A DNA stretch of 64,000 bases. Origin: an uncultured bacterium (lineage in GTDB: Bacteria > Methylomirabilota > Methylomirabilia > Rokubacteriales > DASRDR01). Below are positions 3,425 through 61,596 of this stretch, piece by piece. The stretch spans positions 17,147-81,146 of the forward strand of contig CAYQDR010000004.1 in NCBI GenBank assembly GCA_964416315.1. The letters run 5' to 3'. Made by a program: the position numbers and the translations under genes. Each line of letters begins with the position of its first letter. Within the stretch, counting starts at the first letter, position 1. The notes beneath the pieces were generated by a model that worked only from the letters and a program-made list of their open reading frames with translations, was not told the DNA's origin and did no database searches.

Positions 3425-3475
3425 CCGGAGACCCTCGCCCCGACCCTCTCCCTGGACGGGAGAGGGAATGACCCG

Positions 3476-3531
3476 ATGCAGACGTTCGTCCAGCTCCTGA
3501 TCGGCGGGATCCTCCAGGGCGGGATCTACGC
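3476..3531 (+). repeat. 56-bp direct repeat, copy 1 of the livH 5' end (ATGCAGACGTTCGTCCAGCTCCTGATCGG...)
   Basis: Matches 4363..4418 with one mismatch. Preceded by the strong SD GGGAGAGGGAA. Confidence 0.9.
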
Positions 3532-3969
3532 CGGCCGGTGGCCTTCGAGGAACGGGTTGACCGCGCGCACCGCCCCGTAGACACGGTCGTGTTGGAAGTC
3601 CTCGGAGCACAGTTCGGCCAGCCCGTACTCCTCCGCGTACGCCCACAGGTGGGCGTCGAACCAGTCGAGCTGGTACGTCGCCCAGCCCCGGATCGCCGTG
3701 CGCACCAGGTTCTCGGTCGGATAGAGCACGACGAACTGCGTCAGCAGTTCCTCGGCCTCGCGCCGCGCGTCGGCCGGCGAGAGCAGCGGCTCGCCTCCAT
3801 CCAGAGGTCGCGTGACGGCCGCCACGAACTCGACGATGCCTTGGTGCGGGATGCGCACGCTGTCCTCGAGGAGCCCGCGACGCAGGAGACCGGTGGCAAT
3901 CTCCTGCTTGGCGGGAAACCGCGGGTCGAAGCGGTAGACGAGGACGTTCGTGTCAACGAGCGCGGCCAC
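3526..3969 (-). CDS. vapC: PIN-domain toxin VapC
   Basis: GTG start, N-terminal VDTNVLV motif, conserved acidic residues, ~147 aa. Overlaps the end of the upstream antitoxin gene. Confidence 0.8.
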   Translation of the reverse strand: MAALVDTNVLVYRFDPRFPAKQEIATGLLRRGLLEDSVRIPHQGIVEFVAAVTRPLDGGEPLLSPADARREAEELLTQFVVLYPTENLVRTAIRGWATYQLDWFDAHLWAYAEEYGLAELCSEDFQHDRVYGAVRAVNPFLEGHRPA

Positions 3970-4240
3970 GGTCGTAGAGCTCCTGGCGACGCCACCCGCG
4001 CCCCTGGGCGGTGCGCGATGGGCGCCGCTCAGCCTCGCGCCGCCGCTGGCGCTCCGTCGCCGCGTCGAAGAGTCGGGCCCTCGCCGCAACATCGAGCGTA
4101 GAGGCGCGCCTGCCGGCGGGCAGGACCCGGATGGCGTCCCCGGCGGGGACCCACTCGATCTGGTCCCCGGGGCGGATACCGTACTGCTCGGCGATGGCTT
4201 TCGGGACCGTGACCTGGAGCTTGCTCGTGACTTTCGCCAT
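3953..4240 (-). CDS. vapB: AbrB/MazE (SpoVT_AbrB)-type antitoxin VapB
   Basis: MAKVTSKLQVTVPKAIAEQYGIRPGDQIEWV swapped-hairpin motif, 95 aa. Lies immediately upstream of and overlapping vapC. Confidence 0.75.
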   Translation of the reverse strand: MAKVTSKLQVTVPKAIAEQYGIRPGDQIEWVPAGDAIRVLPAGRRASTLDVAARARLFDAATERQRRREAERRPSRTAQGRGWRRQELYDRGRAR

Positions 4241-4362
4241 GTCCTTACTCTAGCAAGGACGAAATCCTTGTCAAGAGCCGGCGCGACCCCGGAGCGAGGA
4301 TCGAGTCGGCGACCGGCGGCGGTCTATGACGCCGGTCGCTGCGCGTGGTAGGCTCCTGGCCC

Positions 4363-4418
4363 ATGCAGACGTTCGTCCAGCTCCTGATCGGGGGGATCCT
4401 CCAGGGCGGGATCTACGC
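4363..4418 (+). repeat. 56-bp direct repeat, copy 2 (the actual livH start)
   Basis: Matches 3476..3531. Confidence 0.9.
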
Positions 4419-5223
4419 GCTGGGGGCCTTCGGCCTCTCCATCATCTTCGGGGTGCTCCGCGTCCTCAACGTCGCTCACGGCGACTACCTGATGCTCGGC
4501 GGCATGCTCACCTACTGGCTCTACACCACGTGGACCCTGCCGCCGTGGATCGCGCTGCTCGTCGTCTTCCCGGTCTTCTTCGCGGGCGGCTTCCTGGTCG
4601 AGCGCCTCTTGATCCGGCCGATCGCCGGGATGCCGCACCACGAGTTCCTCGTCGCCTCGATCCTCATCACCCTCGGCCTCTCGCTCGCGATCGAGGACGT
4701 GACGGCCTTCGCGCTGGTCCAGCCGGTCAAGGGCATCGACTACTTCCTCCCGCCGCTCCGCGTGGGCACGATCGTGGTCTCGTCCCTGCGGCTCCTCTTC
4801 CTCGCCATCATCGTGGCGCTGACCATCGGGATCCACCTCTTCCTGCGCCGGAGCTTCTGGGGGAAGGCGCTGCGTGCCGTGATGGAAGACCGCGAGGGGG
4901 CGATGCTGGCCGGGATCGACATCGGCACCGCGTCCGCCGTGGCGTTCGCCCTGGGGACGGCGCTCACGGCGACGGCGGGCGTCTTCTTCGTCACCCTCAT
5001 CCCGGTGGACCCCCACATCGGCATCCCGCTCACGCTCAAGTACCTCGCCATCATCGTCCTCGGCGGCGTCGGGAGCCTCCCCGGCGCGCTGGCGGGGAGC
5101 GTGGTGCTCGGGCTCGCGGAGTCGCTCGTCTCCTTCTACGTCGGCGCGCAGTGGTCGCTCACCGTCGCCTTCCTCGTCCTGATCGCGATCCTGCTCCTCC
5201 GGCCGCGCGGGCTCCTCGGCTGA
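4363..5223 (+). CDS. livH: branched-chain amino acid ABC transporter permease LivH
   Basis: MQTFVQLLIGGILQGGIYALGAFGLSIIFGV... is a typical LivH N-terminus. The ORF-track start at 4345 is a GTG extension. Confidence 0.85.
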   Translation: MQTFVQLLIGGILQGGIYALGAFGLSIIFGVLRVLNVAHGDYLMLGGMLTYWLYTTWTLPPWIALLVVFPVFFAGGFLVERLLIRPIAGMPHHEFLVASILITLGLSLAIEDVTAFALVQPVKGIDYFLPPLRVGTIVVSSLRLLFLAIIVALTIGIHLFLRRSFWGKALRAVMEDREGAMLAGIDIGTASAVAFALGTALTATAGVFFVTLIPVDPHIGIPLTLKYLAIIVLGGVGSLPGALAGSVVLGLAESLVSFYVGAQWSLTVAFLVLIAILLLRPRGLLG

Positions 5224-14000: not shown

Positions 14001-17000
14001 CTGGGCACTCTCGCCGCTCGTCGCTCGATGGGTCAGTCGCCCACCGGGCGTCGATGCCGGGCAGCGTCTGTCTCCGCAGGATGCCAGGCTCCTCCGCTCG
14101 ACGGCACGCCGCACGTGGCGGTTCTTCGAGGCCTTCGTCGGCGCGAACGACACCTTCCTGGCGCCCGACAACTTCCAGGAAGACCCGAACCCGGTCCTCG
14201 CGCATCGCACGTCGCCGACCAACATCGGACTCTACCTTCTGTCAACGCTCGCCGCCCGCGATCTCGGCTGGCAGGGCACCCTCGATACCGTCGACCAGCT
14301 GGAGGCGACCCTCGCAACGATGCGTCGCCTCGAGCGCTTCCGGGGCCACTTCTACAACTGGTACGACACGACCGACCTCCGCCCGCTGGAGCCCCGCTAC
14401 GTGTCCACCGTGGACAGCGGAAATCTCGCGAGCCAGCTCCTCGTCCTCGGGAATGCCTGTCGCGGCGCGATCGATCGCCCGCTGCTCCACCGTGAGGCCT
14501 TTGCCGGGATCGAAGACGCCGTGCTGCTCGTCCACGAGGCGGCGAGCGCCCTCGCGGACGACCGGCGCACGCAAACGGTCACGCTCGGCCTTCTCGACCA
14601 GGCGCGCGAGGCCCTGGCCGGAACGCTCCGCGAGCCGCCGGTCACGCCGGCGGACTGGGCCGCCCGCCTCCGGCGGCTCGCCGTCCAGGCCGACGCACTT
14701 GTCGACATCGCGCGCACGTTGACGGCGGAGCGCGGCGACCACGAGGACTCCGACGTTCTGGCCTGGGCCCGGGCGGCACGGGCCACCATCGCGAGCCACG
14801 GCCGCGACCTCGAGACGATCGTGCCGTGGGCGCCGCACCTCCAGGCCGTCCTGGCCGATCTCGCCACCGCGTCGCCCGAGGCCGTGAGGGCGATCGGGAC
14901 CCTCCTCTCCTCGTCACCCACCCCCGCCGACTTGGCCGACCGGTGCCAAGCCGCGATTGATGACCTCACCACCCTTCGGGGGCGCCTGCCGCGCGACGAG
15001 GCCGCCGGTGGGGGTGCGATCGCACGCCTCGACGAGACCATCGGCCAGCTGGAGCGCTCCGCCGTGGCGTCCCGGACGCTCGTCCAGCGCCTGTCCACGG
15101 TCGCCCGGGTCACGAAGGAACTCTTCCACGCGACGGAGTTCGGTTTCCTCTTCGATCCCACTCGCAAGATCTTCTCGATCGGCTATCGCGTCACGGACGG
15201 CAGCCTCGATGCCGGTGGATACGACCTCCTCGCCTCCGAGGCGCGGCTGGCCAGCTTCATCGCGATTGCCAAGGGGGAGGTCCCGGTCTCGCACTGGTTC
15301 CGGCTCGGCCGCCCGATGACCCCGGTCGCGCTCGGGTCGGCGCTCGTCTCCTGGTCCGGCTCGATGTTCGAGTATCTGATGCCGGCGCTGGTCATGCACG
15401 CCCCGTCGGGCAGCCTCCTTCAGCAGACGTATCGCCTCGTCGTCCAACGGCAGATGAGCTACGGCGCCGAGCACGGGGTCCCCTGGGGGATCTCGGAATC
15501 GGCCTCCAACGTGCGCGATCTGGATCTGACCTACCAGTACTCGAACTTCGGGGTCCCGGGGCTGGGTCTCGAGCGGGGGCTCAGCGAGGACCTGGTCGTC
15601 GCACCCTACGCGAGCGCCCTGGCCGCGATGGTGGACCCGGGAGCCGCCGCTCGGAACCTGTCACGGCTCGTCGAGGCGGGGGCCCGGGGGCGGTATGGGT
15701 TTTACGAGGCGCTCGACTACACGAGATCGCGACTCCCGGAAGGGCAGCGGGTGGCGATCGTTCGCGCCTACATGGCGCACCACCAGGGCATGACGCTCGT
15801 CGCGCTGGCGAATGTCCTCCGCGATGGCGTGATGCGCGCCCGGTTCCACGGCGAACCCATCATCCAGGCCACCGAGCTGCTCCTGCAGGAGCGTGCGCCA
15901 CGGGACGTCGCGGTCGCGCGACCGCGCGTGGAGGAAGTGCAGGCGGCGGCCCACGCCCGCGACTTCGCGGCGCCGGTCTTCCGCCAATTCACATCACCGC
16001 ACGACGCGACCCCGCGGACGCACCTGCTCTCCAACGGGCGATATGCCGTGATGCTGACGACCGCGGGCTCGGGGTACAGCCGCTGCGCCGACCTCGGGAT
16101 CACGCGATGGCGCGAGGATGTCACCCGGGATCACTGGGGGACGTACCTCTTTCTGCGGGATGTCCAGAGCGGCGCGGTCTGGTCGGCCGGGTACCAGCCC
16201 ACCGGCGTGGAGCCGGACGCCTACAGGGTGACGTTCTCGGAAGACCGCGCAGAGTTCCATCGGCGCGACGGCGCGATCACGACCACGCTCGAGGTGCTGG
16301 TCTCTCCGGAAGACGACGCCGAGCTCCGCCGCGTCTCGATCACGAACCTCGGCGTACAGGCGCGAGAGATCGAGCTGACGTCCTACGCCGAGCTCGTGTT
16401 GGCGCCGCCGTCGGCGGATGCCGCGCACCCGGCCTTTTCCAGCCTCTTCGTCCAGACGGAATCGGTGGCCGACCTCGGTGCCCTGCTGGCGACCCGCCGC
16501 GTCCGGTCAGCGGCCGAGCCGTCCATCTGGGCAGCCCACATCGTCGTCGTCGAGGGTCAGTTCGGGGGCGGCGCCCAGTACGAGACCGACCGGGGACGGT
16601 TCCTCGGGCGGGGGCGGGGGACCCGCACGCCGATGTCGGTCATCGACGGCCGGCCCCTGTCGAACACGGCGGGCTCGGTGCTCGACCCGATCTTCAGCCT
16701 CCGACGGCGGGTCCGACTGGCACCGGGCGAGAGCGCCCGCCTCGTCTTCTCCACGCTCGTCGCCCCGTCGCGCGAAGGCGCCGTGGCGCTGGCCGACAAG
16801 TATCGCGACCCGGCGACCTTCGAGCGCACGGTCACCCTCGCCTGGACGCAGGCGCAGGTCCAGCTCCACCATCTCGGGGTCGAGACGGACGAGGCCCATC
16901 TCTTTCAAGAGCTGGCGAGTCGGATCCTCTACTCCGACCCGACGCTGCGGGCGTCTGTGGACGTGCTGAAGCGCAGCACGTCGGGGGCTTCGGCCCTCTG

Positions 17001-49239: not shown

Positions 49240-51087
49240 ATGGTGGATCCCAAGACGGCCGACCAGGCCCTGCAGACGTACGTCCGGCCGCAGACGTTCC
49301 CCGTGGCCATCCGGATGCTCCGCGCGGACGAGCCGATCCCCGAGCGGGCCAAGCGGCCCGCACGCGACTTCGGCAAGCTCTCGATGAACTGCCAGGTCAT
49401 CGACATGGCGCGGCGCTACGGCTGGATGATCGCGCTGACGCGCGACGACCACATCTGCTCGCTCGGCATCACGGCGTTCGGCTTCGACCGGCCGACGCAC
49501 CTGTACGCCTCGGGGACGCTCTGCGAGGGCATGTACACGGAGACCCGGGAGGCGGGGGCGCGCTCGGAAGCCGCGGTGGACAAGTTCGCCCCGGGCGAGT
49601 ACGCGTGTCTCCTCGTCTGCCCGCTCGACCGCTGCACGTTCGAGCCCCACCTCGTCGTCGTCTACGCGAACCCGGCCCAGGTGATGCGGCTCACGCAGGC
49701 GGCGCTCTGGAAGCGCGGCGGGCGGCTCACCTCCTCGTTCCAGGGCCGGATCGTGTGCGCGGACATCGTCGTCACGACCATGCAGACGGGCGAGCCCCAG
49801 GTGATCCTCCCGTGCTCCGGCGACCGGATCTTCGGCCAGACCCAGGACCACGAGATGGCGTTCACGATCCCCTGGGGGAAGATGGGCGAGATCATCGAGG
49901 GGCTCGAGGGGACACACAAGGGCGGGATCCGCTATCCCATCACCCAGTTCCTCGAGTACGAGGCGAAGCTCCCCCCGCGCTACATGGAGGTCAACCGGCT
50001 CTGGGACGTCGAGAAGGGGAAGGCGCACTACACCGGGCGCGACCGGGTGGTGGCCGCGTACAAGCGCTCGTACGCCGACCGCGTGCCCGTGTACCCGATC
50101 GTGGCCTCGTTCGCCGGGACGCTCGACGGCCTCTCGATCGAGGAGTTCTGCACGACGCCGTCGAAGGCGGTCAAGGCGATGCTGAACTACGCCGAGCGCT
50201 ACCAGCCCGACGTCGTGCTCGCCTACAACGACCTCGCCAAGGAGGCCGAGGCTACGGGGTGCAAGGTCAAGTACTCCGACTACGTCGTCCCCTCGATCGA
50301 GACCCACGTCCTCCAGGAGGATAAGGGGCGACTCGCCAAGCTCGAGATCCCGGACCCCGCGAAGGACGGCCGGCTGCCGGCGTTCCTCGAGGTCTGCGAG
50401 GGGCTGATGGCGGCGAAGCTCCCGATGGCGACCGGCGCCGTGGCCGTGGGCCCGTGGACGATCGCCATGCTCATGCGCAACCCCGAGGTCATGCTGCTCG
50501 AGACCTTCGAGGACCCGGGATTCATCCACGAGCTGATGCGCTTCACGACCGAGTTCTGCAAGCGCTGGGGCGACGCGATCGTGAAGACCAAGATCGGGCT
50601 CAGCTTCTCCGAACCCACCGCCTCGATCAGCCTCATCTCGCCCGACAACTACCGGGAGTTCATCGCCCCCTACCACAAGGAGCTGGTCGAGTACTTCAAG
50701 GCGAAGAAGGTCGGGCTCACGACCCACATCTGCGGGACGACCTACCCGATCTACGAGGACCTGATCCAGTGCGGCTTCACGACCGTCTCCTTCGATCTCG
50801 ACCAGCAGGCCGACCCGAAGCTCAGGGTGGACCAGCTCGCGCGCTTCATGGACGTGGCGAAGAAGCGCGTGGTCGCCATCGGAAACGTGGACGCCACGCT
50901 CTTCGAGCGCGCCACACAGGCCGAGATCGAGGCCGAGGTGCGCCGCTGCGTGGACGCGGCCGCGCGCCACTCCGCCTGGATCCTCTCCACCTCCTGCGAG
51001 ATCCCGCCGCGCTCCAAGCCCGAGATCGTCCAGTGGTTCATGGACGCGGCGCGGGAGTACGGCCGCTACGAGCGCTTCATGAGCTGA
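49240..51087 (+). CDS. fusion protein: N-terminal DUF169 (COG2043) plus C-terminal URO-D-family (MtaA/CmuA-like) methyltransferase/decarboxylase domain
   Basis: DUF169 Cys pattern (NCQ...DHICSLG...C.DIV..TMQTG..QVILPCSGDR). URO-D-like C-terminal region. Confidence 0.7.
   Translation: MVDPKTADQALQTYVRPQTFPVAIRMLRADEPIPERAKRPARDFGKLSMNCQVIDMARRYGWMIALTRDDHICSLGITAFGFDRPTHLYASGTLCEGMYTETREAGARSEAAVDKFAPGEYACLLVCPLDRCTFEPHLVVVYANPAQVMRLTQAALWKRGGRLTSSFQGRIVCADIVVTTMQTGEPQVILPCSGDRIFGQTQDHEMAFTIPWGKMGEIIEGLEGTHKGGIRYPITQFLEYEAKLPPRYMEVNRLWDVEKGKAHYTGRDRVVAAYKRSYADRVPVYPIVASFAGTLDGLSIEEFCTTPSKAVKAMLNYAERYQPDVVLAYNDLAKEAEATGCKVKYSDYVVPSIETHVLQEDKGRLAKLEIPDPAKDGRLPAFLEVCEGLMAAKLPMATGAVAVGPWTIAMLMRNPEVMLLETFEDPGFIHELMRFTTEFCKRWGDAIVKTKIGLSFSEPTASISLISPDNYREFIAPYHKELVEYFKAKKVGLTTHICGTTYPIYEDLIQCGFTTVSFDLDQQADPKLRVDQLARFMDVAKKRVVAIGNVDATLFERATQAEIEAEVRRCVDAAARHSAWILSTSCEIPPRSKPEIVQWFMDAAREYGRYERFMS
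50858..51087 (+). repeat. 230-bp direct repeat, copy 1 (native 3' end of the DUF169/URO-D gene)
   Basis: 100% identical to 58797..59014. The last ~12 bp diverge. Confidence 0.9.
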
Positions 51088-51453
51088 CGGACCGGCGCCG
51101 CCCGGTGCGCTGCGTCTCTCCCACGCGACGCACGGCACGTGCCGGAACGGTGGGACAGGATCGAGATCGTCCGGAAAGGAGGTGGCAGCTTGAAGTGGAT
51201 CGTGGCCGATCCGGCCCCTCCTCGTGGAGCACGGCGGCGACCTGGGCGGGGTTCAGCCCCTCGAGGACGGGGGCGGCGGATCGGCAGGGTCGGGCGCGCG
51301 GCGGGCCCCCGGGGGTCGACGGCCATCGCCCGGATCACAGCCCCGCCGCGGAGCGCACAACCGGCCCCGTGCGCCTGGAGCCGTCGCGCCCCACGCGCCG
51401 AGAGCGGGGCAGCGGGTGTAGCGTGGGGCCGTGCCGTGATGCGGCGCGCTGAC

Positions 51454-51858
51454 CTACCGACCGAGCCGCAACCGTTCCCAGCAACCGCGCGGATCCACGA
51501 TGGGCACAGGGGCCTGGCCTGCCACGTCGAGAAGATCCTGGTCACCCGTCACCAAGAGGTCCGCGCCCGCCGCGATCACCGACGCTAACACCCACCGGTC
51601 GTCAGGATCACGAACCGGGATAGCCGACGGGTGCCCGGGCCTCGGCACCACTGTCTGGGCCCGCAATTCTGCCTCCACCGCGCTTATCTGCTCCGCCGAA
51701 GCGTGGAACTGGTCCCCCAGCACCCGCCGCAGCTCCTCAAGGTTGACCTCGCCCGTGAGAAGCTCGTGCTCAGCCAGGATGAAACGAACGAGATCGGCGC
51801 TGATTCCGCGGGCCGTGTAGGCGCTCACAAGAACGTTGGTGTCCAGGAAGATCCTCAC
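51454..51858 (-). CDS. vapC: PIN-domain toxin VapC
   Basis: VRIFLDTNVLVSA... GTG start overlapping the antitoxin stop. Confidence 0.8.
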   Translation of the reverse strand: MRIFLDTNVLVSAYTARGISADLVRFILAEHELLTGEVNLEELRRVLGDQFHASAEQISAVEAELRAQTVVPRPGHPSAIPVRDPDDRWVLASVIAAGADLLVTGDQDLLDVAGQAPVPIVDPRGCWERLRLGR

Positions 51859-52076
51859 GACACGATGCGAAACACATCCTCGTCGGTCAGGATCCCCTGG
51901 GCCTCCGCCAGCGGCAGCAGGGCGCGGCGCGAGCGCTCGAAGCGCAGCAGCGCGATCTGGCGACGAAGCGCGTCGCGCACGACCTCGCTGCGGCTGCGCC
52001 CGAGCTGGCGGCACAGCCGATCCAGTTCGCGCTGGAGCTTCGCATCCAGCCGGATGGTGACGGTGGCGGCCTTCAT
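51855..52076 (-). CDS. vapB: ribbon-helix-helix (CopG-type) antitoxin VapB
   Basis: MKAATVTIRLDAKLQRELDRLC... 73 aa. Confidence 0.75.
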   Translation of the reverse strand: MKAATVTIRLDAKLQRELDRLCRQLGRSRSEVVRDALRRQIALLRFERSRRALLPLAEAQGILTDEDVFRIVS

Positions 52077-52230
52077 GTAAGACAATGTACTATGAAACCG
52101 CCCCTGGCGCCAGCGACTCGTCCGCGACGCCCGCCCCGACGATGTCCGCCTTCTGGGTCAGGTGGCCGTGATGGGTGAGCGCGAGCGTCTCCTGGGCGTT
52201 CTGCTCGACCGAGAAGATGTCGTGCCCTGG

Positions 52231-52560
52231 CGATCGGAAACGTGGACGCCACGCTCTTCGAGCGCGCCACGCAGGCCGAGATCGAGACCGAGGTGCGCCG
52301 GTGTGTGGACGCAGCCGCGCGTCACTCCGCCTGGATCCTCTCCACCTCCTGCGAGATCCCGCCGCGCTCCAAGCCCGAGATCGTCCAGTGGTTCATGGAC
52401 GCGGCGCGGGAGTACGGCCGCTACGAGCGGTTCATGACGTAGGCGGCGACTCGCCCTCGCCCGCCTCGGCGGGCGGGGGCGGGGCCTGCGCGGCTGCGGG
52501 CGCCTCGGGCTGGGCGCCCTCCGCAGGCGGTGGAGCCGCGGGGGGCCGCTGGGGTTCTGC
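52231..52560 (+). repeat. direct repeat copy 2 (URO-D 3' end, ~96% identical, plus ~120 bp of shared downstream sequence)
   Basis: Aligns to copy 1 with ~8 substitutions. The tail matches 59027..59150. Confidence 0.85.
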
Positions 52561-52675
52561 CAATGGTGACGAGGTCGAGGTCGACATCTTTCGCCGTCGC
52601 CGTCCTCCGCAACCCCGTCCAGTCGCTCAGGATCGGCTTCGCGGGGTTGAGCGAACCAGTGTTCGGCGCGGAACC

Positions 52676-52705
52676 CGGACTCTCACACTGAGAGTCCCGG
52701 TGTCG
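52676..52705. repeat. inverted repeat CCCGGACTCTCA-cac-TGAGAGTCCCGG (hairpin)
   Basis: 12-bp arms with one mismatch. Intergenic, upstream of the modE-like gene. Confidence 0.4.
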
Positions 52706-52827
52706 GGGAGCTCGCTCGCCCCGACGCGGGACCGGGCCGTCGACCCCTGCTGGCGGCGTCGCGGTCACTCCTGCACGCGCCCTGACTACTCGAAACCAGG
52801 TCCACCTTGCGGTTTGGGGTCGGTATC

Positions 52828-53166
52828 ATGGGGGGCGTGCTGAAGCCGAGGCTCAAGGTGTGGGTCGTCCTCGGGGAGCAGGTCAAGTTCGGGGACGGCC
52901 GGGCCGAACTCCTCGAGCGGATCGAGACCCTGGGGTCGCTGAAGCAAGCGGTCGCCGGAATGGGCATGTCGTACCGTGCGGCCTGGGGCTACCTCCGGGA
53001 GCTCGAGCGCGCCGCCGGGTTCAAGTTCCTGGAGCGCCATCCCGGTCGCGGGAGGACGCGGCTTACCGCGGAGGGGAAGCGGTTCCTTGAGCGCTACCGC
53101 CGGTTCCGAAGGGGCCTGGACGCCGCAGTCGCCCGCCGCTTCAGGCGGTCGTTCCCCCGGAAGTAG
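52828..53166 (+). CDS. ModE N-terminal-domain-like wHTH regulator (molybdate-responsive type, no Mop domains)
   Basis: GSLKQAVAGMGMSYRAAWGYLRELE...GGRGRTRLTAEGKRFLERY matches the ModE HTH pattern. Confidence 0.6.
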   Translation: MGGVLKPRLKVWVVLGEQVKFGDGRAELLERIETLGSLKQAVAGMGMSYRAAWGYLRELERAAGFKFLERHPGRGRTRLTAEGKRFLERYRRFRRGLDAAVARRFRRSFPRK

Positions 53167-53194
53167 CGACTCGCCTGTCTGTTTTTTTGGCGTT

Positions 53195-53225
53195 GATTAT
53201 GCTCTGCGAAGCATATATAAGAATC
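53195..53225 (+). promoter_or_regulatory. AT-rich element GCGAAGCATATATAAGAATCG (candidate ModE-type operator/promoter)
   Basis: The only AT-rich 30-mer in the region, between the regulator and transporter genes. Confidence 0.25.
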
Positions 53226-53269
53226 GTGTCAACCCGCGGGCGTCGCGTGGATCACCGGGGCACGCCCAG

Positions 53270-54400
53270 ATGCGGATCGGCGGAAACGACTACACGCTCC
53301 AGGAGCTGGCCGGGGCCTTCGGGGACCTCGGGACGCTGATCCCGTTCCTCGTGGGGTACATTACCATCACCGGGATGAACCCCGTGGGCATCCTCGTGGC
53401 CTTCGGCCTGTTCAAGATCTTCGCGGGACTCTACTTCCGCTCGCCCATCCCGATCCAGCCGATGAAGGCGATCGGCACCGCGGCGATCAGCCACCCGGGG
53501 ATCATCACGCCCGGTGCGGTCTGGGCGTCGGGGTTCTTCACCGGCGCGCTTTGGCTCGCCCTCGGCCTCACCGGGGCCGTGACGTGGATCGCCAGGCTCA
53601 CGAGCCGGCCGATTGTCCAGGGCCTCGTCCTCGGCCTCGGGCTCGGCTTCATCTTCGAGGGCGTCAAGATGATGGAAGCCGATCTCCCGCTCGCCGTGGC
53701 GGCGAGCGCCCTCACGTTCGTCCTGCTCTCCCGCGAGCGGGTCCCGGCGATGCTTGGCCTCCTGGCCTTCGGCGTGGCGGTCGCGTTGGTCCGGGAGCCG
53801 CGCCTCCTCGAGGAGCTCGGCCGCCTCTCGTTGCGCCTGCGGCTCCCGGAGCTGGCCCTCATGAAGCTCGGCTGGACGGACCTCGTCACCGGGGTCGTGG
53901 TCCTCGGGCTTCCCCAGGCCGCGCTGACCCTGGGCAACGCCATCGTCGCGACCGTCGAGGAGAACAACGCGCTGTTCCCCGAGCGGCCGCTCACGGTCCG
54001 AACGGTCGCGATCGATCACGGGGTCATGAACCTCGTCGGCACGACGCTCGGCGGGGTCCCGATGTGTCACGGCGCCGGGGGGCTCGCGGGCCACGTGCGC
54101 TTCGGGGCCCGGACCGGCGGGGCCCTCGTGATCCTCGGGTGTCTCGTCCTCTTCACGGGGCTCTTCCTCGCCGACTCGGTGCAGACGCTCTTCAAGGTCG
54201 TCCCGCCGGCGCTCCTCGGCGTGATCCTGATGTTCGGCGGGCTCGAGCTCGCCGCCGGGGTCCAGGGGAACCACTGGTCGAAGGAGGACCGTTACGTCAT
54301 GGTCCTGACGGCCGGGGTCTCCCTCTGGAACATGGGCGCCGGCTACGCGGCCGGGCTCCTCCTCTGGCATGCGTTTCGGCGGGGGTGGCTCAAAGCTTGA
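53270..54400 (+). CDS. MOT1-family (sulfate/molybdate transporter-like) membrane transporter
   Basis: [27 protein letters not shown]-terminus. Multi-TM. Confidence 0.65.
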
Positions 54401-55124
54401 CGGCGAGCTGATCCTCCACCGCGGCAGGGCGGCTCGGCGGGCGGCCGACCGTGATCCGCCCGTCGATCATGTGGTAGACGCGGTCGAAGCCCTCGATCAT
54501 CCGGTCATCGTGGGTGACCACGATCACGGCTGCCTGCCGCTCCCGCCCGAGGCGTCGGAGCAGATCCATCACCGCCTTGCCGCGCTCCGTGTCGAGGGAC
54601 GCCGTCGGCTCGTCCGCGAGGATCACGGTCGGCTCGTTGACCACGGCCCGCGCGACGGCCAGGCGCTGCTGTTCCCCGCCGGAGAGCGTTGCCGGGTACA
54701 CGTCCGCCCGGTGACCGAGATCCAGCCGATGCAGGAGCGCCCGAGTCCGCCGCCGCGCCTCGCGCCCCGGGACGCCATTCAGGGTGAGAATCAGCGCCAC
54801 GTTCTCCACAACGGTGAGGAACGGGATCAGGTTGTAGGCCTGGAAGACGATCCCGATCTTCTCCCGCCGCAGGCGCCGATCGTCAGCCCGGACTTGCTTG
54901 CCGTCGTACACGAGCTCCCCGGCGATGGTGATCCGTCCCCGGGTCGGTGGATCGATGAGCGAGATGGCCCGGAGGAGGGTGGTCTTCCCGGATCCGCTCG
55001 GCCCCATGAGGGCGACCAGCTCCCCGCCCCCCACGGCGATGCTGGCGTCCTGGAGTGCCACGACTTCCGTCTCCCCGCGCCCGAACACCTTGGTGAGGTG
55101 CTCCGCGACAATCGCCGGCATCAT
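54390..55124 (-). CDS. ABC transporter ATP-binding protein (MacB/LolD-like)
   Basis: [28 protein letters not shown] overlap with the permease stop. Confidence 0.8.
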
Positions 55125-56317
55125 GCCCCGCCCCCCAGGGCCGTGGTCGGGTCCACGCGGATCGCCTTCCAGATGCCCAGCGCGCTGGCGACGAGGCAGA
55201 TCACTCCGACGATCCCGAGGAGGATGAGCTGGTCGGATGCGACGATGAGGAGCCGTCGTGGAAAGTATTGATAGGTCCGGCTGATGAGGAGCGCGCCCAG
55301 CCCGTAGCCGAGCAGGCCGAGCACGACGGCTTCCTGCACCACGAGCCCGGCAATCTTCCGATCGGGCGCGCCGAGGATCTTGAGCGTCGCGATGTCGCGC
55401 GTCTTCTCCAGCGTCATCGTGTAGATGATGAGGGCGATGATGACGACCGACACGATCAGGAGGATGGTCCGCATCAAGAGGGTCTGCTGGCGCCCCCGCT
55501 CGATGACCACCCTCGCCAGCACGGCCTCCTGCTCGTCGGCCGTCATCGCCCGGTAGTGGTTCCACCGCTCGATCCGCCGCGCCGCCTCGCCGGGGTCCGC
55601 CCCGGGTTGCAGGCGAACCAGCACGGCGTTGGCCAAGTGGGTGTTCTGGACGATCGGCCCGAGCGCGGCGGGAGACACGGAGGCCAGGGCCGGCTCCACC
55701 TTCAGGGTGGCGTCCAGGCGCGCCCGATCGTTGCGCACCGCTTCATTGGCCTTCAGGAACTGGATCTCCTGCGCGTCCTGGAGCGAGACATAGGCGACGG
55801 GGTCGCCGGCGTTCGACACGATCCCCTCGGTCAGCCCGACGATGGTGAAGAGCAGGCGACCGATGCGGATCTCGGCCCCGACGGGCAGGCCGGCCTCGCG
55901 GCCGATCACCATCTCGTACCGGCTCCGCAGGATCGGTCGGCCGGCTACCACGGCGGACGGCCCTCCCAGGCCGTCCAGCCGGTATCCGATCAGCTGGACT
56001 CGAAACGGCTTGGGCCCCACGCGGAACTGGAGCACCTGGAAGGCCACCGGGCTGGCTTCTCGGACTCCAGGCACGCCCCGGATCATCCGATACACATCGT
56101 CGGGGATCCGCGAGGTCTCGGCGAAGGGGCCGTTGGTGTCCTTCTGCACGACCCACAGGTCGGCGCCGGAGCTCCGGAGGATGCTGAGAGCCTCCACGAC
56201 CAGCCCCTGATAGACCCCGCCCATCGCCATGACCGAGGCGAGGAGGAGCCCCAGGCCGAGGGCCGTCAGCAGGAAGCGGCCGAGGCGGTAGCGGACGTCC
56301 CGCAGGGCGAGGTTCAT
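55121..56317 (-). CDS. ABC transporter permease (FtsX/MacB-type)
   Basis: Large periplasmic loop plus a C-terminal FtsX 3-TM domain. ATGA overlap with the adaptor stop. Confidence 0.8.
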
Positions 56318-57744
56318 CGCGGCGTCCGCGCCGCGTCCGTCGCCATGTCCGCTCGGACGACCCGCACCCGGCGCCCGTCGTTCGCGGCATCGGCGAGGCG
56401 GCCAGGCGTGAGCACGACCAGCGTCCCCGGGCGGAGGCCCTCCAGCACCTGCACCCATCCCGCCGGGTCGGCGGCGCCGAGGCGCGCCGCCTGGAAGTGG
56501 AGGCGGCCGTCCGTGACCACGAGGGCGCCCGGTCCGTCCGGTCGACGCACGACCGCCGCCAGCGGGAGGGCGACCGCGCCCCGCTGGGCGGGGGGCCGGA
56601 TGTCGGCCTCCGCTTGCTCGCCCAGGGTCAACCGGAGCGGGCGCGTCTCCAGGGCGATGTCCACCGCCAACTGCTCGGTGACGCGATCGCTCTCCCGCTG
56701 GATCCGCGCCACGCGGCCGGGAACCCGTCGGCCCGGCTGTGAGCGGAGCGTGATTTCGGCAGGGTCCCCGACGGCCAGGCCGCCCGTGTCTCGTTCATCC
56801 ACATACACCGTGACCCACGCCGTCTCGGGGTCGGCGATCTTGAAGATCGGCGTTCCGGGGTTCACCGTGCTGCCGGGTTCGAGCTCCCGGCTGACCACGT
56901 ATCCGGTGAAGGGGCTGACCACGGCCGTATCGGCCACCTGCGCCTGGGCCACCGCCACCGCTGCCTGAGCTTCCCGCACCTGCGCGCGCGCTGCCGCCAC
57001 CTGCTCGGGACGGGGGCCGGCCAGCACGAGGTCGAGCCGCTGCTGGAACGCGGTCAGTTGGTGGCGCGCGGCGGTGATCTGGTCGGTCCGGGCGCCGTCG
57101 AGCGCCAACCGCAGCGTCTGCCGCGCCCCGCGCTCCTGCGCGGCCGCGACCTCGTACGCCTGCCGCGCCCGGTCCAGGTCCTGCGCGGCGATCAGCTCGC
57201 GGGCCCAGAGGCCCTGCATGCGCTGCAGGTCGCGCTCCGCCAGGATCCGCGTGGCGGTGGCGCTCTTGAGTCGCTCCTGGAGCTCTTCGATTTCAGGGGG
57301 CCGAGAGCCCGCCCGGAGGTCATCGAGCTGGGCCTGGGCGTGCGCGACATTGGCGCGTGCCTCCGCGACCTCCTCCGAGCGGGCGCCGGCGAGGAGGTCG
57401 CGCAGCTGAGCCTCCGCGGCCCGCAGGGCGGCGTCCCGTCGGCGCACCTCGGCGCGGATCTCTGCATCGTCCAGACGCGCCAGGATCTGCCCGGGTTCGA
57501 CCGCGTGGCCCTGGTCGACCAGGACGGTGACGAGCCGCCCGGTGATCTTGGCGCCGACTTGCACCACCACCTTGGCCTCAACCGTCCCGACGCCCTGGAC
57601 GGCGGGCGCGACGTCCCGGACGCTCACCTCGGCGACCTGGACCGACGGCGGGCGGAGCAGGAACCACCCCCCGACGGCCACCGCGAGGAGAACAGCCCCG
57701 CCGAGGGCTCCCCGGACGCCACGCTTGAGCCAGCGTCGATCCAT
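56314..57744 (-). CDS. HlyD-family periplasmic adaptor (efflux membrane fusion protein)
   Basis: TM anchor, long coiled coil, barrel-sandwich hybrid domain. ATG 57744. Confidence 0.8.
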   Translation of the reverse strand: MDRRWLKRGVRGALGGAVLLAVAVGGWFLLRPPSVQVAEVSVRDVAPAVQGVGTVEAKVVVQVGAKITGRLVTVLVDQGHAVEPGQILARLDDAEIRAEVRRRDAALRAAEAQLRDLLAGARSEEVAEARANVAHAQAQLDDLRAGSRPPEIEELQERLKSATATRILAERDLQRMQGLWARELIAAQDLDRARQAYEVAAAQERGARQTLRLALDGARTDQITAARHQLTAFQQRLDLVLAGPRPEQVAAARAQVREAQAAVAVAQAQVADTAVVSPFTGYVVSRELEPGSTVNPGTPIFKIADPETAWVTVYVDERDTGGLAVGDPAEITLRSQPGRRVPGRVARIQRESDRVTEQLAVDIALETRPLRLTLGEQAEADIRPPAQRGAVALPLAAVVRRPDGPGALVVTDGRLHFQAARLGAADPAGWVQVLEGLRPGTLVVLTPGRLADAANDGRRVRVVRADMATDAARTPR

Positions 57745-58087
57745 GCCCCAGCTACCCGCCTCGGAAACCACAGCAACCCGCTTGCCAGAGCGCCGCCGAC
57801 GCGAGAATGATGAGGTTCGACGGTGGGTTGCGTCACCCGCCCAGCACGCTGTCCCGTGTCCGGGTGGGGCGTGGCTGCCCCACTCGGGACGAGGCGCCTC
57901 CTTCGCGCCCTCGCGACGGCGCGCCGCCGCCCACGGTTTCGAGGATGGCTCGCTGTCGGCTTGCGGCGACGCGGGCCGGCTGGCCACGCCGGGCCACGGC
58001 GGGAACGCCCGTGCGGGAAGAACAGATAGCGCTGACCGGGCGCGTGCCCGATACTGACTTCTGACCCTGACGCGACAGGAGGGCGCG

Positions 58088-58762
58088 ATGAAGCGAGGAG
58101 TGGTGATCGGAATCACGGCCGTCGGCCTCGGCGTGGCGCTCGTGGCCGGCGTCGTCCTGGCCCAGCAGCCGGCCTCACCAGGCGGCGGCACGGCGCCGCG
58201 CCAGATGGGGCCCGGCATGATGCCCCATGGCGTGATGCCGCACGGCCAGATGCCCCACGGCCCCATGATGCCGAGCGGGGCACCGGCAGCCGCCGGCGTG
58301 CCCACCTTGCCGGGCCAGGACGCCTTCGGCGCCATTGCGGAGATCGTGCGGCTCCTCGATGCGGACCCGCAGACCGACTGGAGCAAGGTCGACCTCGAGC
58401 GGCTGCGTCAGCACCTCATTGACATGAACGAGGTCGTGCTCCGCGCTGAGGTGAAGGCGAGCGCCGTGCCGGGCGGTCTCGCGACGGACGTGAACGGGAT
58501 CGGTCGGACGGAGCAGGCGATCCGGGCGATGGTGGTGCCGCACGCCGGGGAGCTCGATCAGACGCCGGGGCTCGCGGCGAAGACGGAGATCATCCCGGGT
58601 GGCGTGCGCCTCACGGTGACGGCGCGGGACCCCGGGGACGACAAGACGGTGGCGCGGGTCCGTGGCCTGGGCCTCATCGGTCTCCTGACGCTCGGCGCCC
58701 ACCACCAGCCGCACCACCTCGCGATGGTGCGCGGCGAGGCGATGAGCGGCCACGGCCACTGA
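58088..58762 (+). CDS. secreted Met/His/Pro-rich protein (MPHGVMPHGQMPHGPMMP repeats), putative Cu-binding
   Basis: Signal peptide and M-x-H repeats. 224 aa. Confidence 0.55.
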   Translation: MKRGVVIGITAVGLGVALVAGVVLAQQPASPGGGTAPRQMGPGMMPHGVMPHGQMPHGPMMPSGAPAAAGVPTLPGQDAFGAIAEIVRLLDADPQTDWSKVDLERLRQHLIDMNEVVLRAEVKASAVPGGLATDVNGIGRTEQAIRAMVVPHAGELDQTPGLAAKTEIIPGGVRLTVTARDPGDDKTVARVRGLGLIGLLTLGAHHQPHHLAMVRGEAMSGHGH

Positions 58763-58796
58763 CCGTGCCGCGTCTGGGGCCCACGCCGGACGCGGG

Positions 58797-59150
58797 GCCA
58801 GAAGCGCGTGGTCGCCATCGGAAACGTGGACGCCACGCTCTTCGAGCGCGCCACACAGGCCGAGATCGAGGCCGAGGTGCGCCGCTGCGTGGACGCGGCC
58901 GCGCGCCACTCCGCCTGGATCCTCTCCACCTCCTGCGAGATCCCGCCGCGCTCCAAGCCCGAGATCGTCCAGTGGTTCATGGACGCGGCGCGGGAGTACG
59001 GCCGCTACGAGCGGTTCATGACGTAGGCGGCGACTCGCCCTCGCCCGCCTCGGCGGGCGGGGGCGGGGCCTGCGCGGCTGCGGGCGCCTCGGGCTGGGCG
59101 CCCTCCGCAGGCGGTGGAGCCGCGGCGGGCGGCTGGGGCTCCGCCGGTTC
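58797..59150 (+). repeat. direct repeat copy 3 (URO-D 3' end, identical to copy 1, plus shared downstream sequence)
   Basis: 58797..59014 equals 50858..51075. 59027..59150 matches 52443..52560. Confidence 0.9.
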
Positions 59151-59405
59151 CGGGCGGGGCCGCGCCGCGCGAGGGGCGGCGGCCTTCCGCTTGGGGGGCG
59201 CCTCGCTCGCCGCCGGGCCGCGTGCGCCCGCCGGGCCGCCCCGCTGCATCTCGGCGATGACCCAGGGCGCGACCCGCGTCAGCTTCTGGACCACGGCGGC
59301 GCGCTCGGCGTCGCTCTCGGCCGCCTCGTAGCGCCGCCGCAGCTTCGCGAGCTTCTGCCGCCGCACGCGGCGTCGATGCAGCTCCGTCTTCCGTTGCACT
59401 GGCAT
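59016..59405 (-). CDS. small basic protein with Pro/Ala-rich disordered tail, hypothetical
   Basis: SD GGAGG 7 nt upstream. GC3 above 85%. The 3' end overlaps repeat copy 3. Confidence 0.55.
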   Translation of the reverse strand: MPVQRKTELHRRRVRRQKLAKLRRRYEAAESDAERAAVVQKLTRVAPWVIAEMQRGGPAGARGPAASEAPPKRKAAAPRAARPRPEPAEPQPPAAAPPPAEGAQPEAPAAAQAPPPPAEAGEGESPPTS

Positions 59406-59572: not shown

Positions 59573-61171
59573 GTGGCACGGAGGGTTCCCATGAAGCGAA
59601 TCGGCGTCCTCGTCGCTGCCCTGAGCGTCCTCGTCTCGGCGTCCGTGACGGCGCCGCAGGAGAAGCTCGGCAAGGTCCACTTCGCGACCTCGTGCAGCCC
59701 GGCCGTCCAGCCGGAGTTCAACCGCGCGGTCGCGCTGCTCCATTCCTTCTGGCACGACGCGGCCATCAAGGCGTTCACCGCCGTGGCGCAGGCCGACCCG
59801 GGGTGCGCGATGGCGCACTGGGGGATCGCCATGGCCGTGCTGGGCAACCCGTTCGCCTGGCCGCCGGCTCCCAAGGCACTCCAGGACGGCGGGACCCTGG
59901 TAGAACGGGCGAAAGCCGCGGGCGCCCGGACCCAGCGGGAGCGCGACTACGTCGCCGCCCTCGAGGTCTTCTACAAGGACGCGGACAAGACCGACCACCG
60001 GACGCGCGCCGTCGGCTACGAGAAGGCGATGGAGCAGCTCGCGGCGCGCTATCCGGACGACCGCGAGGCGGCCGTCTTCTACGCCCTGGCCCTGAACGCG
60101 ACGGCGCTCCCGACCGACAAGGCCTACGCCCAGCAGCTCAAGGCCGCGGCCATCCTCGAACGAGTCTTCGCGGAGCAGCCGGAGCACCCCGGCGTCGCGC
60201 ACTACCTGATCCACAGCTACGACTACCCGCCGATCGCCCAGAAGGGCCTCGACGCCGCGCGGCGCTATGCCGCCATCGCGCCCTCGGCGCCCCACGCCCA
60301 GCACATGCCCTCCCACATCTTCACCCGGCGCGGCCACTGGCAGCAGTCCATCGACTCGAACCGCACCTCGGCGGCCGCCGCGAAGGACCACTTCAACCAG
60401 CTCCACGCGACGGACTACCTCGCCTATGCCCACCTCCAGCTGGGGCAGGACCGCGAGGCCCGGCGCGTTCTCGAGGACACGCGGGCGATCCAGCGCGTCA
60501 ACGTGGAACACTTCGTCGTCGCGTACGCGCTGGCGGCGATCCCCTCCCGGTACGCCCTCGAGCGCGGTCAGTGGGCGGAGGCGGCGGCGCTGACGTTCCA
60601 GCCGGTGGAGTTCCCCTGGACCCGGTTCCCCCAGTCCGAGGCCGTCCTCGTCTTCGCGCGAGGGCTCGGCGCCGCGCGGAGCGGCAACGCGGCGGCCGCC
60701 CGGAAGGACGCCGACCGGCTCGAGACGCTCCGCGACGCCCTGACGACCGCCAAGCTCGGCTACTGGGTCGAGCAGGTGGAGATCCAGCGCCAGGTGGTGC
60801 TCGCCTGGGCCGCCCGAGCGGAGGGCAAGAACGACGAGGCGCTGCGCCTGCTGCGGGCGGCCGCCGACCGCGAGGACGCGACGGAGAAGCACCCCGTGAC
60901 GCCTGGGCCGATCGCGCCGGCCCGGGAGCTCCTGGGCGAGCTACTCCTCGAGCTGGCTCGGCCGGCCGAGGCGCTCCGCGAGCTCGAAGCGTCGCAGGCC
61001 AAGGAGCCCAACCGCTTCCGGGGCTACTACGGGGCCGCGCGTGCCGCCGAGCTGGCCGGCCAGCACGCCAAGGCGAAGGCCTACTACGAGCAACTGGTGG
61101 CCCTTGCGAAGACGGCCGACACCGAGCGGCCGGAGATCGGTCAGGCCAGAGCGTTCCTCGCGAAGAACTGA
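59573..61171 (+). CDS. secreted TPR-like repeat protein, hypothetical
   Basis: Signal peptide. 532 aa. Helical repeat composition. Confidence 0.6.
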   Translation: MARRVPMKRIGVLVAALSVLVSASVTAPQEKLGKVHFATSCSPAVQPEFNRAVALLHSFWHDAAIKAFTAVAQADPGCAMAHWGIAMAVLGNPFAWPPAPKALQDGGTLVERAKAAGARTQRERDYVAALEVFYKDADKTDHRTRAVGYEKAMEQLAARYPDDREAAVFYALALNATALPTDKAYAQQLKAAAILERVFAEQPEHPGVAHYLIHSYDYPPIAQKGLDAARRYAAIAPSAPHAQHMPSHIFTRRGHWQQSIDSNRTSAAAAKDHFNQLHATDYLAYAHLQLGQDREARRVLEDTRAIQRVNVEHFVVAYALAAIPSRYALERGQWAEAAALTFQPVEFPWTRFPQSEAVLVFARGLGAARSGNAAAARKDADRLETLRDALTTAKLGYWVEQVEIQRQVVLAWAARAEGKNDEALRLLRAAADREDATEKHPVTPGPIAPARELLGELLLELARPAEALRELEASQAKEPNRFRGYYGAARAAELAGQHAKAKAYYEQLVALAKTADTERPEIGQARAFLAKN

Positions 61172-61254: not shown

Positions 61255-61596
61255 CTACCAGCGGACCGGACGACGCGAGCCGCCGCCGAAGCCGCCCCCG
61301 AAGCCGCCGCCCGACCGGGATCCCGCACCGCGGGAGCCGCCGGACCGAGCCGCCGGGTTCGCGACGGCCACCGTGAGCCGCCGCCCCTCGAAGGACTGAT
61401 CGTTCAGCTTCTGGATCGCCGCCTGCGCCTCCGCCTCCGTGGCCATCTCCACGAAGCCGAAGCCCCGCGACTGGCCGGAGACCCGGTCGGTGATCACCGT
61501 GGCGGACTCGACGGCACCGCACTGGGCGAAGCACTCCCGGAGACTCTCGGAGGTGGTGGAGTAGGACAGACCGCCGACGTACAACTTGGACGCCAT
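61255..61596 (-). CDS. rbp: RRM-domain RNA-binding protein with Gly-rich tail
   Basis: RNP2 KLYVGGL and RNP1 RGFGFVEM. Confidence 0.85.
   Translation of the reverse strand: MASKLYVGGLSYSTTSESLRECFAQCGAVESATVITDRVSGQSRGFGFVEMATEAEAQAAIQKLNDQSFEGRRLTVAVANPAARSGGSRGAGSRSGGGFGGGFGGGSRRPVRW

Follow-up and report, generated by a model that had tools for sequence, protein, structure and literature searches.

A triple gene end and an integrase-less insertion scar at a DUF169/URO-D fusion gene of an uncultured Rokubacterium

We analysed a stretch of 64,000 nucleotides (the window) of contig CAYQDR010000004.1, from the assembly GCA_964416315.1 of an uncultured bacterium of the Rokubacteriales (Methylomirabilota). 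In this window the 3' end of a gene coding for a fusion of DUF169 and URO-D domains is present three times, and between the copies lie a vapBC toxin-antitoxin pair and a block of genes with the look of a metal-homeostasis cluster, all of which are absent from the equivalent site in 80 related loci. The locus is a real and fairly ordinary insertion scar of recombination at a gene end, with no integrase. We favour, at about even confidence, an origin by insertions anchored in homology and independent of a dedicated recombinase. The main points of note are the three-allele structure of the repeat, a parallel toxin-antitoxin case at another gene of the window and a difference between assemblies in the likeness of the copies.

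Anatomy, alleles and recovery of the repeated gene end

The copies were delimited by self-BLASTN of the window followed by alignment and base-by-base comparison, and exactly three copies of the 3' end of the URO-D-like gene were found. Offsets within the repeat are counted from position 50875. The elements of the locus are the following:

49240..51087, plus strand: intact DUF169 + URO-D fusion gene (Pfam PF02596 + PF01208), 615 amino acids, ending in ...ERFMS*
50861..51082, plus strand: repeat copy 1, forming the 3' end of the intact gene; allele A fills its first 93 bp, and farther on comes the S-tail CGC TTC ATG AGC TGA CGG
51083..52229, no strand: insert block V, 1147 bp, made up of a 366-bp spacer, vapC, vapB and a 144-bp upstream region
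52230..52561, plus strand: repeat copy 2, an orphan fragment cut at both sides, with the URO-D 3' end at 52230-52442 (allele C, RFMT*)
52432-52561: DUF6800 part of copy 2, the last 130 bp of the convergent DUF6800 open reading frame (ORF)
52562..58799, no strand: insert block G, 6238 bp, putative metal-homeostasis cluster between copies 2 and 3, with a homologous cluster in the Rokubacterial contigs L091 and L092
58800..59145, plus strand: repeat copy 3, an orphan URO-D 3' end at 58800-59026 (RFMT*) that continues into the complete DUF6800 gene
59016..59405, minus strand: gene of a small basic DUF6800 protein (PF20607), whose tail, of low complexity, overlaps the orphan URO-D end

Copy 1 (50861-51082) matches copy 3 (58800-59021) over 222 bp with a single mismatch, 51075 C against 59014 G, and the exact run is of 214 bp (50861-51074). 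The match between copy 1 (50875-51082) and copy 2 (52230-52437) extends over 208 bp with 8 mismatches, and that between copy 2 (52230-52561) and copy 3 (58814-59145) over 332 bp with 11 mismatches, that is 96.7% identity. An earlier sequence-only reading of the window had described such a triple gene-end repeat around an insert, with one copy about 96% identical to the others, and in both respects it was borne out. The same reading took 50858..51075 and 58797..59014 to be 100% identical; near-identity holds, but 50858-50860 mismatch 58797-58799, so that the start is about 3 bp off, and position 51075 differs.

A further 124 bp (52438-52561 = 59022-59145; about 120 bp in the earlier estimate) is common to copies 2 and 3 only and corresponds to the 3' end of the opposite-strand DUF6800 ORF. 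Past 51082 copy 1 reads GCTGACGG, giving the end ...RFMS*, whereas copies 2 and 3 read CGTAGGCG at the same point, giving ...RFMT*; the two gene ends had been correctly told apart from the letters alone. The boundaries of the copies do not coincide. On the left, copy 1 is continuous with the gene, copy 2 begins at offset 0 and copy 3 at offset -14; on the right, copy 1 ends at +208, copy 2 at +331, and copy 3 is continuous into DUF6800. Copy 3 therefore has 14 bp more in common with copy 1 than copy 2 has. As was also anticipated, copy 2 splits the insert into two blocks, V and G, and the result is an array of gene ends each with its own following genes: vapBC behind copy 1, the cargo block behind copy 2, and DUF6800, a TPR protein and an RRM protein behind copy 3. 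The two orphan URO-D fragments, of 66 and 72 codons, are most likely non-functional.

The same gene order is found in five assemblies, the window and four others. The window matches the 100-kb contig Ga0114945_10000007 of JGI metagenome 3300009444, and the order was also recovered in an ENA k141 contig of 76 kb, in an 8-kb contig of JGI 3300022563 and in a Logan contig of SRR5747861. Both the repeats and the order recur in all four. Over 21.8 kb (window 39240-61087; compared with L081/L086/L087/L088) the window differs from the JGI 3300009444 contig at 14 positions, 9 of which lie inside the repeats, and all 9 make the copies of the window more alike, for which reason its "100% identity" should not be over-read. 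A cluster of 3 of the 14 differences falls within 19 bp of vapB (51942, 51950 and 51960).

We call haplotype J the sequence version carried by the other assemblies. In the two JGI assemblies and the ENA assembly copies 1 and 3 differ by 5 mismatches, against 1 in the window, since copy 3 carries four extra differences from copy 1 in haplotype J (58855 G, 58861 G, 58871 A and 58893 G). Copy 2 of this haplotype shows a CA-to-GG change at 52386-52387. The GC-to-CT change of copy 3 at 59053-59054 occurs in the JGI 3300009444 contig only, the other two contigs stopping before this position. The longest exact stretch between copies 1 and 3 in haplotype J is of 120 bp, and the copy-specific variants are consequently bridged by 141-mers. 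The greater likeness of the copies in the window reflects either gene conversion or consensus homogenisation during assembly. For metagenome-assembled genomes in general this is a warning: the identity of the repeats varies between assemblies (1 against 5 mismatches), and "100% identical" repeats are unfit for dating events.

In haplotype J the first 93 bp of the repeat exist as three alleles, A in copy 1, B in copy 3 and C in copy 2; in the window copy 3 is equal to allele A. They are followed by a core of 107 bp (offsets 93-199) identical in all three copies, with the exception of the CA-to-GG change of copy 2 in haplotype J. The relatives considered below are only 84-89% identical across this core, so its identity is due to recombination or conversion and not to constraint. 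Of the seven differences between alleles C and A, six affect third codon positions (P=0.007 against an even use of the three positions), and all seven are confined to the first 93 bp out of 200 (P=0.005, with a threshold picked after seeing the data). Allele B has two of its four differences at third positions, and in the other assemblies copy 2 contains one Gln-to-Gly change that looks like decay. Third-position differences are what one expects of copies derived from working genes in related strains. Taken from the sequences, the allele pattern is a suggestive, not conclusive, mark of recombination between diverged working alleles.

The site and the cargo in related lineages

The relatives were 80 loci of Rokubacteria (Methylomirabilota; L001 to L080) with an orthologous gene of 79-92% amino acid identity. 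Close relatives are poorly sampled, the nearest having 92% identity. Most of the 80 loci show a malic enzyme gene (minus strand), the URO-D fusion gene (plus) and the gene of an RRM protein (minus), with about 200-300 bp between the last two. In a clade of 87-88% identity a TPR gene (plus) stands between URO-D and RRM, either immediately behind the stop codon (L009, L011) or separated from it by one NHL/SGL-like gene (L004-L012). The conserved right flank is present in the window as well:

59591-61171, plus strand: TPR protein, following the URO-D-like gene directly or after 0.1-1.1 kb in relatives
61255-61596, minus strand: RRM RNA-binding protein, following the URO-D-like gene directly or after 0.1-1.1 kb in relatives

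In none of the 80 loci is there a vapBC pair, a ModE-MOT1-efflux-Met/His block, a DUF6800 gene or a repeated URO-D 3' end, and the DNA from 51088 to about 59590 is therefore extra with respect to all sampled relatives. The claim of the sequence-only reading that this segment is an insertion bracketed by repeats is thus sustained by its absence from the equivalent site. The site is itself variable: unrelated genes over 2-4 kb occupy it in L001, L002, L014, L056, L057, L075 and L080. The ten main ORFs tested at the site (from L001, L002, L004, L014, L057 and L075) code for hydrolases, a solute-binding protein, a radical-SAM enzyme, DinB and an adenylate cyclase, and no recombinase was found among these ten from the inserts of six relatives.

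Throughout L001-L080 the fusion is kept with the malic enzyme upstream and the RRM protein downstream, and one source names a member of its cluster "MtaA/CmuA family methyltransferase". Two loci, L005 and L010, with URO-D, TPR and RRM genes and 88% and 87% identity to the query, occur in a single bin (MFD02242.bin.2.73), which represents either a mixed bin or a segmental duplication.

The tail of copy 1 (CGC TTC ATG AGC TGA CGG) recurs unchanged in L004 and is the usual one in L004-L012, and the ends of the nearest relatives, GCG-TAG in L002 and ACG-TAG in L003, resemble RFMT* (ACG TAG). Judged from these sequences, RFMS* and RFMT* are both natural gene ends, and the tails alone leave the polarity undecided. 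The idea of RFMS* as the only native end, with the polarity of the sequence-only reading simply reversed, was dropped on the ends of L002 and L003. That reading had taken copy 3 to show the ancestral junction, of which one part stands, RFMT* being a plausible natural end as in L002 and L003, and the other finds no support, as DUF6800 is at the site in no relative and no empty site was found.

A protein-guided scan of metagenomes for DUF6800 detected no intact junction of URO-D(RFMT*) with DUF6800. Metagenome contigs gave 0 matches to an exact pattern of 22 nt spanning the RFMT*/DUF6800 junction, in a collection that does not hold this population, as the source contig was unmatched too. A single homologue of the DUF6800 protein was found among 5.8 billion proteins, of 87 amino acids and with 70% identity over the matched 43% of the query; it is placed in an unrelated context, adjoining a non-homologous TPR gene, and was for this reason rejected as a pointer to a native DUF6800 site. 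In the ORF of the window the match to the family is limited to the first ~47 residues, the other ~80 being rich in Pro and Ala and of low complexity, and the reading frame is closed only by a stop codon that lies within the orphan URO-D end. The overlap of the two may be an effect of ORF extension and not a real gene overlap.

Searching for other orphan URO-D 3' ends with the 72-amino-acid fragment returned mostly truncations at contig ends or frameshifted long-read genes (L096, L099, L100), together with two isolated remnants (L095, L097). The same ends occur in two suggestive chimeras from other metagenomes, P0178 (L101 67-423) and P0193, in which the last 42-48 URO-D-like codons continue, in frame, an N-terminus of LysR-type helix-turn-helix (HTH) or of CoxL type. 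Their breakpoints lie just left of the core common to the three copies, and in L101 the native terminator and sequence of the RRM side come after the chimera; the contigs are only about 1 kb long.

No Pfam match to integrase, transposase, relaxase or transfer-gene families was obtained for any ORF of the island, and no integrase, transposase or relaxase was found in the main predicted ORFs of the window, in agreement with the earlier statement that no integrase or transposase is present. Neither a tRNA nor a tmRNA gene occurs in the window, and such a gene was rejected as the integration target.

The cargo had also been described as island-like, but a foreign look was not sustained. The GC content is 66-75% both inside and outside the island, with no anomaly, and the plasmid and phage collections returned only generic ABC-ATPase similarity. 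In another Rokubacterial lineage (L091/L092) there is a homologous cluster of Met/His protein, Crp, HlyD, FtsX, ABC, MOT1 and ModE genes, the L091 proteins being 58-88% identical to those of the window. In L091 (1-13968) a URO-D 3' end is placed at the contig edge and the cluster about 4 kb downstream, after Amidase, amine oxidase and GFO_IDH genes; this Amidase-AminoOx neighbourhood is conserved. The block from HlyD to ModE is inverted in L091 with respect to the window, and the Crp gene of L091 is missing in the window. A foreign origin of the cargo was rejected on these three grounds, and by the same comparison the cargo is native-type flexible Rokubacterial DNA and no exotic element.

Mechanism of insertion and its alternatives

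Campbell integration, in which a circle bearing a chromosomal fragment is taken up by a single crossover, leaves the insert flanked by direct repeats of precisely the homologous fragment, following the same logic as the insertion-duplication produced by a suicide vector. The copies are mosaic if the alleles differ, and only RecA-type recombination is needed. Compared with plain Campbell integration, the present locus needs two nested events with different fragment ends. We infer that two successive homology-anchored insertions took place at the 3' end of the DUF169/URO-D gene without a dedicated integrase, either of the Campbell type or by homology-facilitated illegitimate recombination, and it is to this recombinase-independent origin that we give about an even chance. 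In each event incoming DNA of a related strain, carrying a URO-D 3' end and new genes, would recombine through that homology, by single-crossover integration of a circle or, for a linear fragment, by homology-facilitated illegitimate recombination. The 3' end that came in would become the working end and the resident end would be pushed downstream as an orphan, the URO-D-like gene remaining intact at every stage.

In the first event the resident end, now copy 3 with DUF6800-TPR-RRM, would have been displaced by DNA with allele C, the RFMT* end, 130 bp of DUF6800 and the ModE-MOT1-efflux-Met/His genes. The duplication would then extend from -14 to +331, making the right edge of copy 2 and the left edge of copy 3. 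In the second event the end that is now copy 2, cut at offset 0, would have been displaced by DNA with allele A, the RFMS* tail and vapBC. The long homologies (208, 222 and 332 bp) and the non-coincident boundaries fit two such nested events. Because the extra 14 bp are shared with copy 1 by copy 3 and not by copy 2, the cargo would be the older insert and vapBC the younger. A two-step model with vapBC older predicts that copy 2, not copy 3, shares these 14 bp and was rejected by the boundaries; the proposal of an older vapBC islet and a younger block is in this way reversed, the cargo block fitting best as the older.

Strings of orphaned 3' regions are known from Rhs and type VI secretion system (T6SS) loci, for which sequential displacement through homology-facilitated illegitimate recombination was proposed (Kirchberger et al. 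2017, PMC5361080). The URO-D locus resembles these orphans and those of contact-dependent inhibition (CDI) systems in that one constant gene retains a functional 3' end while older ends, together with the genes behind them, are shifted downstream, in the lack of an integrase, in the anchoring homology within the conserved part of the gene, and in that an earlier remnant can ride in a later insert (PMC5361080). It differs in that the gene is a metabolic DUF169/URO-D fusion and not a polymorphic toxin, and in that the 3' ends encode nearly the same protein, the variation being in the genes carried behind. The mechanism, proposed for Rhs/CDI/T6SS (PMC5361080), is here an inference as well.

A second arrangement of this kind was located in another part of the window:

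3476..4432, no strand: parallel toxin-antitoxin case, with an orphan livH-like permease start, PIN toxin, MazE-type antitoxin and intact permease start
3476-3547: orphan copy of the first ~72 bp of the livH-like permease gene (self-BLASTN 3469-3547 = 4357-4432)
3526-4092, minus strand: PIN toxin (PF01850)
3953-4240, minus strand: MazE-type antitoxin (PF04014)
4363-4432: intact permease gene start (PF02653)

The layout is like that at the URO-D gene, with a gene-end fragment, a toxin and an antitoxin on the minus strand and the gene end again; it differs in the gene, in the use of the 5' end, in the antitoxin family and in the duplicated sequence, and the toxin-antitoxin pair is an unrelated one. 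This parallel case points to a recombination process that is general rather than site-specific. Tentatively, and with more doubt than confidence, both cases could be samples of a genome-wide mode in Rokubacteria, in which cassettes, often led by a vapBC-type pair, would be added at the ends of core genes by recombinase-free, homology-anchored recombination, leaving orphans of 70-330 bp, with the toxin-antitoxin pair as the selfish, fixing component.

Several points weigh against the homology-anchored origin. The donor order it calls for, URO-D followed by vapBC or URO-D(RFMT*) adjoining DUF6800, was found neither in the relatives nor in metagenome contigs, and the first event needs a donor whose cargo was joined to a truncated DUF6800 beforehand. 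Homology-facilitated illegitimate recombination was reported to occur rarely in the species where it was measured (PMC5361080). The 107-bp core fits a preferred crossover site as well as gene conversion, the third-position bias gives P=0.06, not significant, against the 50% expected for one working and one decaying copy, and the recombinase search covered the 64-kb window only.

The sequence-only reading had compared the repeats to attL/attR-type duplications, and in this explanation the three copies would stand for the attL, attI and attR sites of two decayed elements that accreted in tandem at the URO-D 3' end, with a surrogate gene end in attP and the integrase elsewhere. The att repeats of systems built on a cis-mobilizable element (CIME) are short sites with a common core. 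In ICESt1/CIME accretion at the fda gene of Streptococcus thermophilus there are, as here, direct repeats containing the 3' end of a protein-coding target that remains intact, no integration or transfer genes, and cargo blocks in tandem, here two among three repeats; repeats with the target 3' end, an intact target and the lack of integration genes are the published definition of CIMEs and accretion (PMC5704250). A core of 107 bp identical in all copies (120 bp between copies 1 and 3 elsewhere), in a region where relatives have 84-89% identity, would also suit it. The chimeric ORFs of other lineages, in which foreign sequence joins the last 42-48 codons just left of the core, point the same way. 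The contig of 8017 bp from JGI 3300022563 (L088), equal to window 50976-58992 with a 78-bp exact terminal overlap, is compatible with a circle; however, any chromosomal direct repeat yields such an overlap in a de Bruijn graph.

Against this origin, the homology is of 208-332 bp, running 93-107 bp to the left of the core and up to 124 bp past the gene end, with allelic divergence, and the boundaries differ (-14/0 on the left, +208/+331 on the right), which is atypical of att sites. No integrase was found among the ORFs of the island, among the main ones of the window or among those tested from the inserts of six lineages, and neither a cognate integrase nor a related intact element occurs in the window or at the site in the 80 relatives, none of which carries the element or the repeat there. 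Furthermore, the cargo is ordinary chromosomal Rokubacterial DNA with no shift in composition, and the permease case uses a different duplicated sequence. We consider the attL/attR-type origin possible but doubtful. The accessory islands at the single-copy ssrA (tmRNA) gene of Dehalococcoides, described under the title of site-specific mobilisation, also concern a conserved gene in a lineage of uncultured, environmental type; the URO-D locus differs in its protein-coding target and in that no recombinase is seen (PMC3146451).

A local rearrangement is unlikely. The cargo would have been a neighbour of the gene already, moved and inverted by segmental duplication and deletion, with the orphan ends as partial duplicates of the URO-D/DUF6800 junction that diverged in place under occasional gene conversion. 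The L091 cluster, about 4 kb downstream of the URO-D 3' end and with its HlyD-to-ModE block in the opposite orientation, is in line with such a history, as are the repeat differences between window and assemblies, which all raise the likeness of the copies as gene conversion would, and a codon-position bias compatible with one working and one decaying copy. Nevertheless, no relative has a counterpart of vapBC or of DUF6800 near the gene, three alleles and two natural-type tails are hard to derive from one resident gene, no inverted repeats flank the inverted block, and the duplication at the permease gene is left unexplained.

Chimeric joins or collapsed strain variants of a metagenome assembly are a very improbable source of the repeats, for although the copies of the window are more alike than elsewhere, as consensus homogenisation among repeats could make them, and several contigs from other samples break inside the repeats, the same order stands in the 100-kb JGI, 76-kb ENA k141, second JGI and Logan assemblies, the cut left edges of copies 2 and 3 join unique to mid-gene sequence in a way that an assembler cannot make from shared k-mers, and the copy-specific variants of the other assemblies are closer than k=141, which gives the links k-mer support.

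Genes of the insert and other features of the window

The gene content ascribed to the insert from the letters alone, namely vapBC, a ModE-like regulator, a MOT1 transporter, HlyD/FtsX/ABC efflux genes and a Met/His-rich protein, was confirmed by Pfam where the families have a profile:

51454..51858, minus strand: vapC, PIN-domain toxin, 134 amino acids (PF13470/PF01850), with the same call in the JGI contig
51855..52085, minus strand: vapB, ribbon-helix-helix antitoxin (PF01402), called in the JGI contig with 73 amino acids and the end at 52076
52828..53166, plus strand: ModE-like HTH regulator (PF00126, HTH_1), 85% amino acid identity to L091
53270..54400, plus strand: MOT1-family molybdate transporter (MFS_MOT1, PF16983), 88% identity to L091
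54390..57744, minus strand: efflux operon (Pfam), with HlyD adaptor, FtsX/MacB permease and ABC ATPase
56314-57744, minus strand: HlyD adaptor, 58% identity to L091
55121-56317, minus strand: FtsX/MacB permease, 73% identity to L091
54390-55124, minus strand: ABC ATPase, 82% identity to L091
58088..58762, plus strand: Met/His-rich secreted protein, 224 amino acids, with no Pfam match and >4800 homologues

The vapB and vapC genes overlap by 4 bp and, from their family names, the pair probably stabilises its insert block. By the same kind of evidence the cargo block, with a ModE-like regulator, MOT1, a MacAB-type tripartite efflux system and the Met/His-rich secreted protein, looks like a metal-homeostasis unit; homologues of the Met/His-rich protein adjoin Crp-family regulators, a cation-efflux protein and a P-type ATPase. 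A scan for terminators and promoters gave nothing useful.

The locus records the gain of accessory genes, for molybdate uptake, MacAB-type efflux, a Met/His-rich metal-binding protein and toxin-antitoxin pairs, in an uncultured and slow-growing phylum of soil and groundwater. The gain took place next to a conserved gene with no visible integrase, and the orphan gene ends, whose alleles are distinct, are scars of it that can be dated. Should these alleles prove to be those of working genes in co-occurring strains, the locus would represent a clean natural case of homology-anchored displacement outside toxin loci.

Two further features of the window were recorded. A fluoride riboswitch (RF01734, 29099-29168, minus strand, 56 bits) is the only Rfam match in the window and lies far from the locus. 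An ORF of 2939 amino acids (11041-19860, plus strand), with GH94 supersandwich and catalytic domains and a glucoamylase-like domain, resembles a cyclic beta-1,2-glucan synthase or phosphorylase.

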